In this document: positions 1,831-53,535 of the stretch, one piece after another
Layout of the letters: every line of letters begins with the position of its first letter
Numbering within the stretch: the first letter of the stretch is position 1
Assembly: GCA_951406725.2 (NCBI GenBank)
Contig: OX597821.1
Location: 70,184,001 to 70,248,000, forward strand
From: Octopus vulgaris
Lineage: Eukaryota
DNA: 64,000 nucleotides
Direction of reading: 5' to 3'
The notes under the pieces: model-generated
What the model saw: only the letters and a program-made list of their open reading frames with translations
The model's database searches: none
Told to the model about the DNA's origin: nothing
Position numbers and translations under genes: made by a program

Positions 1831-3265
1831 TTAGTACTGGAATGTTTCATTTATGATGACGTACTCTAGCATTTGTCTGTGCGTTGGGTCCTTCGGGTGC
1901 TTAAATAAAATGCGGATGTCAACTTGACCCAGTGTGCCTCTGTTTTGTTCTTTGGCATGTTGATAGAGTATGAAGGATATTATTTTGTCGTCATATTGTC
2001 TCAAATGGTCATTTAGTCTCTCCGCAATGCTTCTAGATGTCTCACCTATGTATATCATGTTCTTGTCTTTAAAAGCAACCTCTATACACCTTATGCTGTT
2101 GACTACATTTCTAGTTCTACAGGTAACGCCTGGGTTAATCTTACATACCGTGCAGTTATCATTGGTGCATGTGGTACTCTCAAAGGGGTACGTCCTACAT
2201 AGTTGTGACCTTATTGAGCTCCCTGTCTTTTCAACGATCTTAAGATTGAGTGTGGCCTCCGTCAGAGACTTCCTAAATCTACGGGCTAGTTTTCCATTGG
2301 ATGTGACCTCTACAAACGTCACTCCTTGATATTTGTTGGTCTTGTACCACGTGTTCATCCTGTTTGTTTTCTCACAAACTCTTTGTATCCTATTCCAGTC
2401 TTTACTTTTCTATCTAGGGTTGGTGCCACTAGTTTCATAACATGTGATGCTATCTATCTTCTTTCTAGCACCCCTGTATATTCGAATCCTATTTTTCTGG
2501 TCACATCCAGAGAATTGCATGCGGTGCGTGAAATTCTGTACACGTTTCTTTGTTTCACAGGATTCGCGTAGTGGGGACACGTTGTTAATTATCCCGAGTC
2601 TGCTATCAGTGTGCTGAGTTTTATAAGCCATGGGTTTCGTGTAATAAGAGCGGAGGAGTTGCACTCTGTTGTTCACACCTCTAACCAAAGTTCAGTATCA
2701 AGGACAGGGTATCTATTGTTATGGTGTCTAGTGAGTTAATCTATAGTTACCTTGATACTTTGGTGGATGGGGTTAGTTACGTGCTGGATGCTCTCCATTA
2801 TGTTCTTCTCGGTTTCTACATTACAGTTACTAGAATTTGTCCTAACTAGAATATTAATGTCATCTACATACCTACAGTAATGCAAATCAGTCGAGGATTG
2901 TTCCACTAAGGATTGTTTAAATTTTCTATCCCACCAGGTCATGAAGAGTCTGGTCTCATCTCCAGCCACACCTTGAACCTAGATGTACAGTTTCTTGTTG
3001 AACTTTACTATGTGGTTCTTCAAGGTGGTTCTTACGCTAGCTCCTATTGCATGAGCAGTCAGTCTTCTCATTCGACTGTTGTTCTCAGGGTCCTGAGTGG
3101 GTGTGGTCCAGGCACTCCAGCGCTCTGCGGTGCTTTCCTTCTCTGTCAAGGTGATGGTGGGTGGTCTTCTCCACTGTGACCAGGTTTTGGTGAATCTAGA
3201 AGCTCCTAGTCCGGATCTGCACGTTGGCAACAGATGCAAGACGGTCGCCTTCCTGAGAGCTGGTG
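1831..3265 (-). mobile_element. Decayed Penelope-like retroelement (RT + GIY-YIG endonuclease)
   Basis: Frameshifted ORFs: LKNHIVKFNKKLYI (RT), YCRYVDDI (catalytic), YTKPMA, C-x4-C-x2-C linker, then CRTRNVV...YIGETSRSIAERLNDH (GIY-YIG). Confidence 0.9.
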
Positions 3266-7500: not shown

Positions 7501-7774
7501 AATTTAAATTTAAACCCAGGACCATGTGTTTTGGAACGAAGTTTGTTACCACACAGCCACACCTGCACCTATGTATGTGTGTGTGTGTGTGTATGTGTGT
7601 ATAGCTGTATATGTATACATTTAGTTTTATACATATAGATATATATGTATACATGTATATGTGTAGATGTATATATAGATAGATGTACATGTAATATGTA
7701 CACATATATATTTACATATATACATGCATACCTATATATACACCCATACACACATACACACACACAAATACATA

Positions 7775-8100
7775 GGTGCAGGTGTGGCTGTGTGGTAACA
7801 AACTTCGTTCCAATACACATGGTCCTGGGTTCAATCCCACTGTATCTTCTGGCATGTGTCTTCTGCTATAGCCCCAGACCAACCAAAGCCTTGTCAGTAG
7901 ATTTTGTAGACAGAAACTGAAAGAAATCAATCGTATATATATATATATATAAGTAAGTATGTGTGTGTGTCTTTGTGTTTCTCCCTCATCACTGCCTCAC
8001 AACTGGTATTCGTTTATTTACATCTCCATAACTTACTGGTTTCACAAGAAGAAACTGATAGAATAAGTACCAGGTTTATCAAAACAAAAAAAAACCCCAC
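7775..8100 (+). mobile_element. tRNA-derived SINE, with an inverted copy of its head at 7512-7570
   Basis: A-box-like gtggctgtgtggta and B-box gggttcaatccc. Confidence 0.65.
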
Positions 8101-10279: not shown

Positions 10280-10351
<72 letters not shown>

Positions 10352-10353
<2 letters not shown>

Positions 10354-10788
10354 AGAAATATTGAATTTCTAAATGTCTCAGAGAGACATGAGCGGTGGTG
10401 GAGCGATATAGTGGTCGTATACTATTGAGTTGACAGTATACGACCACTATATCGCTCCACCACCACTCATGCCTCTCTTAGACATTTAGAAATTCAATAT
10501 TTTCAATTTCGGTGATCAGTAAATAAATTTTACTGAAAATAGGATATATTTGCGAAAAGGTTGCAGTCATCTCAGCGAGCGAGACTGGCTACCCTGGACT
10601 GACGACGAGCAATAGACTCAGAAACATATGTCTTCAGGTGCATCTCCCAGCTGGCGGCGGTGATTGCCTCCCCTTTGCAAATATAAGGACACAGAAAATG
10701 TGTCAAAGCCGACAGGAAACGTCGATGTTTCCTAGGTCGAAATGGTGGTGGTGTAATTCCCTTACGGGACTGTCACATTGAGTTGACA

Positions 10789-10793
<5 letters not shown>
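10352..10793 (+). mobile_element. HHR-bearing 353-nt unit with 17-nt terminal redundancy and a 5' inversion, between two (TA)n tracts
   Basis: attgagttgacagtata at 10424 and 10777. 10352-10423 is the reverse complement of about 10435-10507. Confidence 0.8.
10593..10638 (+). ncRNA. Minimal type-I hammerhead ribozyme, canonical core
   Basis: cctgga-CTGACGA-cgag/caataga/ctca-GAAA-catatg-TC-ttcagg. Confidence 0.85.
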
Positions 10794-10850
<57 letters not shown>

Positions 10851-10851
<1 letters not shown>

Positions 10852-11352
10852 ATAGTTATCGGCATACTAATATGGCATTCTTATAAAAATAAGAAAAAAG
10901 CTGTCCGCTTATTAGCTCCATGAGGCCATCGCCTTAAGTTAGCTATTTGATACACAAACTGTATCCATATAACCTTCGAACAAGGGAGGTCAGTCGCTCC
11001 ACACTACTTGACCGGCAGCTACAGACGCGTTTCGGAGTATTGCCCCTTTTCAATGCAGCGTAGCCAGCCAGTAGGTGTCGCTTCCGACAATCTCTGTTCG
11101 ATGGTTTTATTTACCTAGTTTCGGTGGAATACATCCACTTGTTTTCAATAATAGAAATATTAAAATAACTAAGTCTCTCTAAAAGAGAACAGCGGCAGCG
11201 TTCCCGGAAAATAATAGTTATCGCCATACTAATATGGCATTCTTATAAAAATAAGAAAAAAGCTGTCCGCTTATTAGCTCCATGAGGCCATCGCCTTAAG
11301 TTAGCTATTTGATACACAAACTGTATCCATATAACCTTCGAACAAGGGAGGT
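10851..11352 (-). mobile_element. 1.4 copies of a 362-nt HHR-bearing unit
   Basis: 10851-10990 is repeated at 11213-11352. The HHR lies between the repeats and the element starts at a (TA)n tract. Confidence 0.8.
11018..11059 (-). ncRNA. Minimal hammerhead ribozyme (UUGAAAA core)
   Basis: Minus strand: gctgca-TTGAAAA-gggg/caata/ctcc-GAAA-cgcg-TC-tgtagc. Confidence 0.75.
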
Positions 11353-15477: not shown

Positions 15478-15713
15478 AAATCGTCGCACTCGCGCCAAAT
15501 TTATCGGCAGCAAATAAATATAAGCCGTCGATTCCATTACGGAATTAACCAGAAAATTCATAATTAATCAATATAGGGTGGCAAAAAAAATTTTGTAGAA
15601 TTCTTTTTGCCACCCTATATTGATTAATTATGAATTTTCTGGTTAATTCCGTAATGGAATCGACGGCTTATATTTATTTGCTGCCGATAAATTTGGCGCG
15701 AGTGCGACGATTT
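15478..15713. repeat. Near-perfect 236-bp palindrome at the 5' end of the HHR element
   Basis: Arms of about 117 bp centred at 15595/15596, with mismatches only near the centre. Confidence 0.95.
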
Positions 15714-33362: not shown

Positions 33363-33670
33363 GGAGGCGCAATGGCCCAGTGGTTAGGGCAGCGGACTCG
33401 CGGTCAGAGGATCGCGGTTTCGATTCCCAGACCGGGCGTTGTGTGTGTTTATTGAAAGAAAACACCTAAAGCTCCATGAGGCTCCGGCAGGGGGTGGTGG
33501 CGACCCCTGTTGTACTCTTTCGCTTCAACTTTCTTTCACTCTTTCTTCCTGTTTCTTGTCCCCGACTTCCTACGCAACCGCTGAGCCTGAATTCACATTC
33601 ATCCATCCGTCGATGCTCTCGGTGTCGGGGGTTGACGTTCTTTCTCTTCTGCGGGTCTTACGAATAGCAA
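33363..33670 (+). mobile_element. tRNA-derived SINE
   Basis: A-box tggcccagtgg and B-box ggtttcgattccc; matches 28880-29107. Confidence 0.85.
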
Positions 33671-33793
33671 AGGGTGGGTGTTACTGTAGCTTTTAGCCCC
33701 AGGAGGTCATCGTCTCCACCTGGCTTTGGGCACACTTTCTGTACCCTTATGGTATTTGCAAACGGTTTCCCTTTATCGAAAACCGGTGATTGC

Positions 33794-33837
33794 CGTACGC
33801 GAAGACAGGCAAATACCTAGAAACTGCAGTCCGTGCA
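33794..33837 (+). ncRNA. HHR of unit 1 (1-nt core deletion)
   Basis: cgtacg-CGAAGA-cagg/caaata/ccta-GAAA-ctgcag-TC-cgtgc. Confidence 0.55.
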
Positions 33838-34146
33838 TATCACTTAGGTTGACGAGAGAGGGATGAATTCCCTTTGCAAATACCATAAGGGCACAGAAGG
33901 TGTGCCTAAAGCCAGCTGGAGACGATGATCTCCTGTGGTTAAAAGCTACAGTAACACCCACCCTTAGTGGTTAGCCATATTGAGATGGCTAGTATACTTT
34001 ACGTTGTCGTGCAGTTACTCTTTACATCTCGTTCAGAGATTTATTATTGCTTGCAGACAGTTTTTCGAAATCAGTGACGAAAGTTACTGGAAAAACAATA
34101 AATACGTATTTGCAAACGGTCTCCCTTATCGAAAACCGGTGATTGC

Positions 34147-34191
34147 CGTACGTCGAAGACAGGCAAATACCTAGAAACTGCAGTCCGTGCG
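34147..34191 (+). ncRNA. Minimal HHR of unit 2 (UCGAAGA core)
   Basis: cgtacg-TCGAAGA-cagg/caaata/ccta-GAAA-ctgcag-TC-cgtgcg. Confidence 0.75.
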
Positions 34192-34500
34192 TATCACTTA
34201 GGTTGACGAGAGAGGGATAACTTCCCTTTGCAAATACCATAAGGGCACAGAAAGTGTGCCTAAAGCCAGCTGGAGACGATGATCTCCTTGGGCTAAAAGC
34301 TACAGTAACACCCATCCTTAGTGGTTAGCCATATTGAGATGGCAAGTATACTTTACGTTGTCGTGCAATTACTGTTTACATCTCGTTCAGAGATTTATTA
34401 TTGCTTGCAGACAGTTTTTCGAAATCAGTGACGAAAGTTACTGGAAAAACAATAAATACGTATTTGCAAACGGTCTCCCTTATCGAAAACCGGTGATTGC

Positions 34501-34545
34501 CGTACGTCGAAGACAGGCAAATACCTAGAAACTGCAGTCCGTGCG
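34501..34545 (+). ncRNA. Minimal HHR of unit 3
   Basis: Identical to 34147-34191, exactly 354 bp downstream. Confidence 0.75.
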
Positions 34546-34783
34546 TATCACTGAGGTTGACGAGGGAGGGAGGACCTCCCTTTGCAAATACCATAAGAGC
34601 ACAGAAAGTGTGTCTAAAGCCAGCTGGAGACGATGATCTCCTGTGGTTAAAAGCTACAGTAACACACACCCTTAGTGGTTAGCCATATTGAGATGGCTAG
34701 TATACTTTACGTTGTCGTGCAGTTACTTTTTACATCTCGTTCAGAGATTTATTATTGCTATATATATATATATATATATATAT

Positions 34784-34912
34784 ACGTCATCTGTTCAAAA
34801 GACATCTGACAAACGGTCTTCTTCTTAGCTTCAAAAATGGTGAGATAAATTATTATTTCGACCAAGAAACCCTGGGTAGTTGGGTTTATCAGGATTTGTG
34901 GTTTTTATAATA

Positions 34913-34953
<41 letters not shown>

Positions 34954-34973
34954 ATTTGTGGTTTTTATATATA

Positions 34974-35017
<44 letters not shown>

Positions 35018-35146
35018 TATTATAAAAACCACAAATCCTGATAAACCCAACTACCCAGGGTTTCTTGGTCGAAATAATAATTTATCTCACCATTTTTGAA
35101 GCTAAGAAGAAGACCGTTTGTTAGATGTCTTTTGAACAGATGACGT
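34784..35146. repeat. ~130-bp inverted repeat around (TA)n tracts
   Basis: 34784-34915 versus 35013-35146, near-identical; a short third piece lies at 34951-34975. Confidence 0.9.
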
Positions 35147-35931
35147 TTAAACAAAAAGACACGGCTAAGGAAGAATACAAGAAGAAAATCACAAGGGAGA
35201 TAACCAACGCCACTATACTTCGGTGTCAAGCAGACGTAAACAAGGTGTTAATGGTTTCCTAAATGTCCGGTGATCCACTTTTAAATTCCGACGCGATGTT
35301 TCTCTTGAAATGCGCACTGCAGAAAACCTCATTGCCGGAATTTATGTATTATTATTTCGACCAGGAAATCTTGTCTAGCTCTGTATAAAGAGATTTGTGC
35401 TTTTTTGTATAACATTATCGTTTGATATTATAACATCATCACCCTTACATTCTTAGCTGATCGTGCGAAAAACTGGCAGAATTTTGTTTATTACTTAATT
35501 ATGGCACCAAAATAAATTATTTATAAAACTTACATCAAAACTTTATTGAAAGTTTCTAATATGATCCCTGTTTGTATCCCTGCAAATTTCAATCCTATCT
35601 TTAGCGTTGCGAAACACATTTTGAAGCATATCAGGAGTTATCTCCTACACTGCTAACCGAATGTATTTTTTTAAGTTCAAATAAAATATTGCTTCATCTT
35701 GGGAATAGATGAAGAGAAAATGATTGCAACCAAATTGAAAAAAGCTGTCGTTGACAAAGGAGCAGGATCCAACAGGAATGAAAATAAAATTATAAAAAAG
35801 AATTAAAAAATTATAAGCAATATTAAATATTTATACACTTTTTAACACATAAACATTATAAACATAAGCAAAAGTAAACTTTTATAAAAGTTGTCCGATT
35901 TCACTGAAATATTTAATTCTGGGATACCTTG

Positions 35932-37269: not shown

Positions 37270-40326
<3,057 letters not shown>

Positions 40327-51264: not shown

Positions 51265-51454
51265 GCTTTACTAGAAATAGGAGTTAAAACGATTCAAAAA
51301 CCACAGTTGTCACTGATACACACTAGAGAGTTCGAGAGAAAATGCAAATAGTAAAAACTAACTTACATGGTTTTTGAGCCGTCTTGGATTTCTAGCAAAG
51401 CTGTGCTTGCTACCCATTTATATTATTATCATTTATTAATAAAAATTAGGCTTA

Positions 51455-51605
51455 CGAGAAAGTGATGGCCTCCCTTTGCAAATACCATAAGGGCACAGAT
51501 AGTGTGCCTAAAGCCAGTTGGAGACGATGATCTCCTGAGGCTAAAAAGCTACAGTAACACCCCCCTTTGTGGTTAGCCATATTGAGATGGCTATTATACT
51601 TTACA
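51455..51605 (+). mobile_element. Dispersed partial copy of the 354-bp unit
   Basis: ccctttgcaaataccataagggcacag...ggttagccatattgagatggcta matches about 33870-34000. Confidence 0.85.
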
Positions 51606-52282
51606 ATATCTTTGTATATTCTTATAATTTTATTCATTTCGATCGTTTTTTGAAATTTGCGGCTATATTGAAAATGGTCTGTACAAACATGGTAATGCGA
51701 ATATTTTTAGCCCTCGGTAATGAGGACTGCGCTTATGCACCCCCATACCCACAGATTATATTTTATACAGGTAGAATAGTTAGTGGGCTGTTATGCAGAT
51801 AGATGTATGTTTGCGTGTGTGTGTGTGTGTAAGTGTGTGTGTATGTAGCCATATGGAAATGAAAGTAAACAGATAGACGTACAGACGGATAGGTACATAG
51901 GTTGTATGAACAGCCACATCCACAAATTAAGACTGAAACACCTGACCATATAGACACACACACTTCACTTCTCACAAGGACACATATGGAGACACACGTC
52001 TACACATATGGCGATATACAGGCATACATACCGACACAGTACATAGTCACAAACACACTCAGACATGCACACACAAGGAGGCAGAGGTACACACTCACAC
52101 ACATGCAAACACACACACACAAACACATGAATATGCAGAATACATACATACAAACGTATACACGTATATATATAATAAATTCAGGGTGAATACTTGATAA
52201 ATGTAAGCACCTGTATATGCCAGCTAGTGGTATAGGTGATAGGATATATGTATCAAAAGAAAAACAGGACGCAAAGGATTTT

Positions 52283-52369
52283 GCGGTACATATGTTTCGG
52301 GCTTTATTGAACAACTTATATCAATGCATAATTGATATAACAGGTAGATCGAAAGCCTTCTTCAGCCGC
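52283..52369 (-). ncRNA. Hammerhead ribozyme, inverted copy
   Basis: Reverse complement of 52498-52584. Confidence 0.8.
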
Positions 52370-52497
52370 GTACAATTACCACACCAAAGACATGTATCAC
52401 ATTATAACAGGTTTGAGAAAAAGTTTGGGAATAAAACTCGGTTTTTTCCCACAAACCTGCTATAATGTGATACATGTCTTTGGTGTGGTAATTGTAC

Positions 52498-52584
52498 GCG
52501 GCTGAAGAAGGCTTTCGATCTACCTGTTATGTCAATTATGCATTGATATAAGTTGTTCAATAAAGCCCGAAACATATGTACCGC
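52498..52584 (+). ncRNA. Hammerhead ribozyme, canonical core, extended stem II
   Basis: gcgg-CTGAAGA-aggcttt...(ttatgtcaat/tatgc/attgatataa)...aaagccc-GAAA-catatg-TA-ccgc. Confidence 0.85.
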
Positions 52585-53013
52585 AAAATCCTTTGTGTCC
52601 TGTTTTTCTTTTGATACATATATATATATATATATATACTCGCACACACATACATGCATACACTCACATGCATACATACATATATACATACATACATACA
52701 TACATACATACATACATACATACATACATACATACATACATACATACAGGCATGTGTATGCGCACACACATGCGCACAAACGAACAAAAAGAACGCAATT
52801 TGAATAACGGACAGTCAACAACTATTAAAAAGGTTGCAAGACGCAACGAAATTTTTTTTTAATAAATAAGTAAATGAGTGGAAATCTTACCGGTGACTGT
52901 GTTAAATTATAAGGCCCTAAACGAGAATAACTCTCCCCAGACACAACAGATCATGCTTCAACACACGAACTCATATAAAGAATCTAGCAAAACAAATCTC
53001 AAAACGATATATA

Positions 53014-53098
<85 letters not shown>

Positions 53099-53181
53099 AT
53101 TGGTAGAAATGGCAAGACAACTAAAGAATGAAAGAGACCTCGATATTATGTAAATAGAGGAATTTATTATTCGGTAGCCTT

Positions 53182-53241
53182 GATAAAACTCCGAGTTTCG
53201 GATGTCGGGGTAGAAACTCACGCCACACCTCTTCAGTTATC
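53182..53241 (-). ncRNA. Family-B hammerhead ribozyme, inverted copy
   Basis: Left arm of the hairpin 53166-53371. Confidence 0.7.
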
Positions 53242-53294
53242 GGCCCATCGAAAAGAATTGCTATGCATTTTCATAGCATTTTTTACGATGGACC

Positions 53295-53354
53295 GATAAC
53301 TGAAGAGATGACGGCGTGGGTTCCGCCCCGACATCCGAAACTCGGAGTTTTATC
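53295..53354 (+). ncRNA. Family-B hammerhead ribozyme
   Basis: gataa-CTGAAGA-gatg..ggcg/tgggttc/cgcc..catcc-GAAA-ctcggag-TT-ttatc. Confidence 0.75.
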
Positions 53355-53535
53355 ATGGATACCGAATAATTGTCACATATTATATATATATATATATATA
53401 TTACCATTTTGCCTAAATAATGGAACTTCAGATACAATATCCATGCATATCTCACGTCTATTTTCATTTTTTCTCTCCATTCTCTATTTCAAATCTTATC
53501 TAGAATTTACTATTGCTTAACCATCTTCTCACACC

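Follow-up and report, generated by a model that had tools for sequence, protein, structure and literature searches.

A dispersed hammerhead-bearing repeat family of Octopus vulgaris with the insertion footprint of Penelope-like elements

The locus at positions 10284-10851 of the window, the 64,000-nucleotide stretch of Octopus vulgaris DNA analyzed here (contig OX597821.1, positions 70,184,001 to 70,248,000), is probably a two-armed insertion of a 353-nt hammerhead-bearing non-coding repeat, an animal non-LTR retrozyme written into (TA)n by a Penelope-like reverse transcriptase (RT)-endonuclease. It belongs to a protein-free, non-coding repeat family whose copies are dispersed over hundreds of places in the genome.

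Anatomy of the locus and of the repeat family

The unit was numbered from u1 (10441) to u353 (10793), which places the predicted hammerhead cut at u192/193. As the original prediction had stated, (TA)n is present on both sides: the target microsatellite forms a left run at 10284-10350 (to 10351 by another reading) and a right run at 10790-10851, neither of which has a strand. Next to the left run lies an inverted arm of 73 nt on the minus strand (10351..10423), which consists of u348-353 and u1-67 and ends at the tailed 3' end of the family, u67. It includes the 56-nt 'tail', u12-u67 (10351..10406, minus strand), located between the two fixed 3' ends of the family. The plus-strand arm of 370 nt starts at its truncated 5' end with a 17-nt stub of an upstream tandem unit (10424..10440, u337-353), followed by one full 353-nt non-coding unit (10441..10793). 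The inverted repeat formed by 10351-10423 and 10435-10507 has arms of 73 nt that are 93% complementary and enclose a loop of 11 nt. A hairpin spanning 10352-10507 had been noted correctly as a 5' foldback, but it is the inverted second insertion arm and not part of the unit RNA. A microRNA precursor was also considered for this foldback and rejected, as the Rfam matches were far under threshold (49.8 vs 90 bits) and any perfect hairpin yields such matches.

The 17-mer ATTGAGTTGACAGTATA occurs at 10424-10440 and again at 10777-10793 with a spacing of 353, as had been reported; the last four letters of the right copy are indistinguishable from the (TA)n run. An alignment of genomic copies, which had been proposed as a check, showed that the sequence past u353 (10793) continues as u1 (10441) onward for at least 7 nt in 29 of 29 other full copies. 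The 17-mer is thus u337-353 of an upstream unit, at the point where the arm in the window broke off. Parts of a unit precede many of the full copies, and one locus (L002) reads u35-353, u1-353, u1-67. The proposal that the unit was copied just over once off a tandem or circular template is borne out by this continuation and by the many partial dimers, whereas a 17-nt terminal redundancy as a feature of the unit is not: it merely marks the truncation of one arm, and arms range from 18 to 748 nt. The 17-mer as a target-site duplication, which together with a chance match and copies that are never multimeric had been named as the refuting case, is ruled out by the continuation in other copies and by separate, genuine target duplications of 10-15 bp of flank.

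The forward unit stops at a TATA which runs into the microsatellite, about 11 nt before the tail-less end that is usual in the family. Among 30 compared copies, the window copy is the only one without these last 11 nt, which were likely lost between two TATA words unless priming happened there. Identity of the window copy to the majority of the 30 copies is 94.4%, and the mean pairwise identity is 92.9%. This level of identity to the majority indicates that it is not young; it is an older, ordinary one-hammerhead product with about 6% divergence. To the right of the element, a 142-nt direct repeat with 99% identity (10849-10990 and 11211-11352) surrounds an unrelated stretch and is either a local duplication of recent date or one more small insertion.

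The genome searched for further copies comprises 2.8 Gb in 227 contigs. With the unit as query at least 94 matches were obtained (40 scored of 2412 candidates). Genome-wide, exact patterns for the subfamily core, the tail and u220-252 gave 68, 374 and 228 matches, and a loose hammerhead pattern gave 369; the reversed controls gave 0 in each case. The 68 core matches against none in the control show that the hammerhead motif is not due to chance. Further subfamilies share 70-89% identity, and subfamilies overall are 70-100% alike. The unit period is 353-354 nt, and the longest ATG-led frames in a natural dimer comprise 27 codons on the sense strand and 53 codons on the other. More than one unit was found in 69 of 212 arms and more than two units in 2 of 212. 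Tandem hammerheads are present in the family (L002, L034, L090, L282-L288), whereas the window locus holds a single one. Exact patterns recovered 3 + 4 loci with two hammerheads in tandem, none exceeding about two units, to which L002 and L090 add further cases, and 20 divergent hammerhead loci viewed with 3.5-kb flanks all contained short units. Internal deletions occur within arms at four loci (L144, L243, L012, L284), several of them in or beside hammerhead stems; these may be template skips across RNA hairpins.

Insertion ends, paired arms and target duplications

Arms were mapped in 150 loci, which were chosen by the tail pattern (85), the whole unit (30), the hammerhead (30) or by hand (5), so that the shares given here are not genome-wide rates. 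After removal of 16 duplicates, 134 distinct loci with 212 arms remained. The 5' ends are ragged, whereas the 3' ends have two fixed positions, separated by about 56 nt: 91 arms are tailed (end at u64-70), 87 are tail-less (end at u352-13) and 34 end elsewhere. The individual counts were 53 at u67, 40 at u12, 27 at u6, 15 at u68 and 11 at u66. Back-to-back arms formed 63 pairs (65 listed minus two duplicates, as L028 and L097 were double-counted), among which 43 combine a tailed with a tail-less arm, 2 are tail-less twice, none is tailed twice and 18 include an atypical end. Opposite ends are therefore paired in 43 of 45 typed pairs (binomial p 3e-11), and this rule holds in each sample of loci taken separately.

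Two-armed insertions are flanked by a target duplication of 10-15 bp, with a mode of 12, in 17 of 21 cases outside TA repeats; mismatched flank pairs used as a control showed such a duplication in 50 of 1092 combinations (4.6%). Among single-armed copies it was present in only 9 of 27 non-TA cases. TA repeats alone flank 22 of the 43 two-armed insertions; at the TA-flanked window locus a target duplication is undefinable. A TA run comes next after 55 of the 91 tailed ends and after 43 of the 87 tail-less ones, compared to 6% of random window positions. The counts of ends, pairs and duplications indicate that a two-armed locus is the product of one event, in which both ends of the target were joined to 3' ends of the element. 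Subfamily could be typed for 41 pairs (25 were untypable), and in 39 of these the two arms agree; the identity within 45 pairs averages 0.929 vs 0.900 between loci. A few rare variants are common to both arms of an insertion, too few to show that both were copied from one template molecule. The ends, the opposite pairing and the duplications constitute the 'tail' footprint of Penelope-like elements.

A mechanism can be proposed on this basis. The endonuclease would nick both target strands about 12 bp apart, and from each free 3' end reverse transcription would begin within the RNA, from one of them at u67 and from the other near u11. The two cDNAs would break off at variable points and then be joined back to back. 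For the window locus this would mean that a Penelope-like protein nicked the (TA)n on both strands and that two cDNAs were primed at u67 and near u11. The Penelope-like protein of anole is described as cleaving AT-rich DNA on both strands and extending them; it is predicted to dimerize, and its reverse transcription begins at two internal sites, one on either side of the tail (PMC11167929).

Related structures were observed elsewhere in the window. Large palindromes of 230-410 nt are located at 7510-7834, 15478-15713, 34781-35149 and 37301-37691, and some of them may be further two-armed insertions. A sister retrozyme with a 354-nt period, about 80% alike over 55 nt, occupies 33668-34760 and consists of a short inverted arm and approximately three tandem units that end at (TA)n. 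It has the helix III ACTGCAGT, a C.A opposition at helix II and the cores TCGAAGA or CGAAGA. Genome-wide, this sister family yielded 153 matches, mostly CCGAAGA, followed by CTGAAGA; given this prevalence, the cores in the window look like decayed CCG cores. A 160-nt, 5'-truncated copy of the sister family at 51446-51604 has no hammerhead. Two more back-to-back palindromes beside (TA)n, at 52244-52623 and 53166-53370, carry hammerhead-like motifs (CTGAAGA...GAAAC at 53300 and 53236, and GAAACATATGTA at about 52570); they belong to other families of the same build.

The hammerhead and the RNA template

The type I hammerhead is located at 10593..10638 on the plus strand, at the tip of a predicted long rod that extends helix I (10542..10678, plus strand; RNA fold z = -6.0). 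Helix I is formed by 10593-10598 and 10633-10638 (6 bp), and the conserved parts are CTGACGA (10599-10605), GAA (10621-10623) and GTC (10630-10632), with a predicted cut after C10632 (10632/10633). The earlier description of a canonical mid-unit hammerhead holds for the core CTGACGA/GAA/GTC, with two qualifications: helix II has 3 bp and opens with a C.A opposition, and helix III has only 2 bp and a palindromic loop, ACATATGT; among the hammerhead parts the palindromic helix III reads ACAUAUGU. A helix II that begins with a mismatch has been described for natural ribozymes (PMC3088659). An Rfam scan of the window at the gathering score found no hammerhead, and an E-value scan returned Hammerhead_II as its sole hammerhead row (E 2.8; 15.3 bits where the cut-off is 37).

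From loci L001-L257, leaving out 30 Penelope loci, 116 hammerheads were parsed with a parser that needs anchors and misses badly broken ones. The core is intact in 96 of the 116, and 102 have a perfectly palindromic helix III of 6, 8 or 10 nt, namely ACATATGT (56), ACATGCATGT (39) and ACATGT (7); ACTAGT characterizes a further subfamily. The 6-nt forms leave a 2-nt loop, which is too short for a hairpin. Helix II alternates between GAG/CTC and GGG/CCC, and its base is C.A in 86 and U-A in 25. Helix I is 97.7% paired and shows a change from A-U to G-C in 6 of 73 sequences (73 of 115 distinct sequences). Percent paired and the covariation score exceeded 500 of 500 shuffles, although kinship inflates such scores, whereas two pair-count covariation measures failed to beat the shuffles (394/500 and 491/500). 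By these sequence comparisons, the hammerhead is conserved in the family and has compensatory changes.

In the energy model helix III adds no stability to the monomer (-4.3 vs -3.9 kcal/mol), whereas pairing as an 8-bp duplex amounts to -7.0. A hammerhead with a 2-bp palindromic helix III is therefore predicted to need a partner. Short palindromic helices III are usual in animal type I hammerheads, which are described as poor ribozymes as monomers and active as dimers (PMC4209133). With its single hammerhead, dimer-dependent by prediction, the window locus alone could not release unit-length RNA. The original prediction had named it the best candidate for an active ribozyme; with one hammerhead, the predicted need for a dimer and about 6% divergence, the window copy is by this modeling a poor one.

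As for the template of copying, the cut site is read through in 78 of 100 arms reaching u220, which indicates that the template was mostly uncut or re-ligated. The remaining 22 of these 100 arms ended within the segment on the 3' side of the cut. Over the following 27 nt 8 arms stopped according to the script, or about 4 by eye without internal deletions, and there were only 3 stops at the cut or one base off (p 0.001, which applies to the by-eye count alone). Of 25 arms that had not yet ended in the sample picked by the tail, 13 stopped between u210 and u186. The drop-off is equally high at u260-222, so that stalling on the rod explains the 5' stops as well as ribozyme cleavage does. A single fragment covering u131-192, whose 3' end coincides exactly with the predicted cut, was observed inside other sequence (L056:1473-1534, element strand) and could be a captured cleavage product or a chance match. 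Contigs of four runs presumed to be RNA cover mainly the 3' half of the unit.

Given Penelope-type copying, we lean towards a circle as the template. Less firmly than the steps at the target, such a unit-length circle would be cut from a two-hammerhead transcript by the dimeric ribozyme and then ligated, and it would let the enzyme run beyond one lap. A circle is favored since few long linear sources exist and arrays would otherwise shrink; in addition, the predicted circular fold of the unit is good (L002 unit, z = -7.5). A serious, though somewhat doubtful, alternative is Penelope-type insertion in which a linear tandem transcript left uncut, or template jumps made repeatedly, took the place of a circle, the hammerhead being dispensable for copying. 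The read-through of the cut site in 78 of 100 arms is equally compatible with uncut RNA and with a ligated circle, hammerhead mutants of the anole element were reported to insert normally in vitro (PMC11167929), and 8 of 9 Xenopus dimers reportedly failed to cleave (10.64898/2026.07.22.740005). Against this, only 2 of 212 arms exceed two units, and the 3 + 4 tandem double-hammerhead loci do not provide longer linear sources. Arrays copied from linear RNA would also shorten with each generation, yet the unit persists over subfamilies that are 70-100% alike and the ribozyme is conserved.

Extending the preferred circular template, a more specific scheme is put forward tentatively: one RNA circle may be copied from both strands of one 12-bp staggered cut by a dimer of the Penelope-like protein, with a separate fixed start for each active site (u67 and u11). 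As a counter, the dimer-dependent hammerhead would cut only two-unit transcripts and spare the circle, so that only insertions extending past two hammerheads would found the next generation.

Relation to retrozymes and Penelope-like elements

The family resembles animal non-LTR retrozymes such as those of mussel (350-390 bp) and the axolotl Rtz353 (PMC7229834; 10.64898/2026.07.22.740005) in its non-coding 353-nt unit, a GC content below 50%, a single type I hammerhead in each unit, copies in tandem, a highly self-paired predicted RNA, target duplications of more than 4 bp and a host genome rich in Penelope-like elements. A retrozyme unit was taken as about 150-450 bp of low GC without LTR, PBS or PPT, and was judged on period and ORFs. 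The family has a short non-coding, low-GC unit with a 353-354-nt period and no long ORF, a type I hammerhead per unit, tandem hammerheads (not at the window locus) and dispersed insertion with target duplications of more than 4 bp. At the level of sequence it displays every retrozyme feature that was assessed, self-cleavage being predicted and circular RNA tentative. In contrast to the retrozymes described so far, the octopus family mostly has 0.1-2 units per arm and no long arrays were seen. Its two fixed 3' ends and back-to-back arms are absent from the published descriptions as far as these were accessible (PMC7229834, 10.64898/2026.07.22.740005), and the word 'inverted' does not occur in PMC7229834. 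It also has a dimer-type helix III, which is tied to vertebrate retrozymes in the literature, and Y.A at the base of helix II.

Penelope-like elements with an endonuclease share with the family 5' truncation, partial tandems, an adjacent inverted copy, a tail at only one end, a pair of internal start sites, targets that are AT-rich or (TA)n, and a hammerhead with a short palindromic helix III (PMC8557442, PMC11167929, PMC4209133). Penelope-like insertions are described as having partial tandems and a neighboring inverted copy, with a tail that is often confined to one end (PMC8557442), and a tail, two fixed 3' ends, an inverted 5' copy, partial tandems and an AT-rich target are all found here. 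The family differs in the absence of an ORF, in a tail of 56 nt vs 30-40 nt and in having no sequence link to the one autonomous family compared (30 loci). Without an ORF for RT and GIY-YIG it does not belong to the autonomous Penelope-like elements; it works like one at insertion but is not an autonomous one. N-terminal-endonuclease clades of Penelope-like elements are described as lacking canonical hammerheads (PMC8557442). The non-autonomous elements of Chlamys, e.g. MRC1, are likewise non-coding, Penelope-dependent repeats with head-to-tail insertions, but they are green-algal and resemble their autonomous partners at the 3' end (PMC8557442).

The genome is rich in elements that combine RT with a GIY-YIG domain at the C-terminus (150 of 150 scored candidates, of 8173). 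A partner search with the GIY-YIG fragment encoded in the window yielded one large family, and 30 loci of this family showed no homology of their own to the unit and no consistent or matching hammerhead in the first 1.5 kb downstream. The sole unit-like match among them, at L154 and 1.1 kb downstream, appears to be an independent insertion of a sister repeat. An autonomous partner was not found among these loci, and only 1 of 247 family loci lies near an RT/GIY-YIG ORF, about 1.1 kb off. The window itself contains a broken Penelope-like element at 1831-3200 on the minus strand, in which remnants of RT are left alongside a GIY-YIG domain bearing a zinc-finger-like linker; a relative (L152) has an open frame of 665 codons.

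A quite improbable reading takes the copies for pseudo-LTRs, the 5'-truncated ends of some autonomous Penelope-like element, rather than for an independent non-autonomous element. The tail, the inverted arm and the hammerhead are all described as pseudo-LTR traits (PMC8557442, PMC4209133), but the unit is preceded in mapped loci by the end of the same unit and never by a shared coding stretch, u67 continues into u68 of the same unit, and no RT or endonuclease match adjoins a copy in 247 loci. For the copies seen this explanation is largely refuted. An origin by a DNA-level process, be it satellite amplification, repair by fold-back or target duplication of 17 bp, is suggested by the unstable microsatellite flanks and the many large palindromes in the window but is highly improbable, as the fixed 3' and ragged 5' ends, the opposite-end pairing and the separate 12-bp duplications are footprints of reverse transcription and the copies are dispersed, not arrayed.

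Retrozymes are treated as Penelope-like derivatives, and the precise mechanisms of their mobilization in animals are stated to be still in need of elucidation (10.64898/2026.07.22.740005). Mobilization by Penelope-like elements has so far been argued from co-occurrence and pseudo-LTR trees, and the route of copying has mostly been inferred. A 'tail at only one end' is already in print for Penelope-like elements (PMC8557442); for retrozymes, no statement of the opposite-end rule was found in the main-text literature searched, although supplements may show such ends. The window locus by itself is ordinary. The family is a new one of a known kind, likely an animal non-LTR retrozyme mobilized by a Penelope-like element, with a clear and testable enzyme footprint: its copies carry the mark of the enzyme itself in the tail, the opposite start points on two arms and the 12-bp duplication. 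They thereby supply exact coordinates for in vitro study of the formation of inverted copies and tails, a task that is named as open in PMC8557442.
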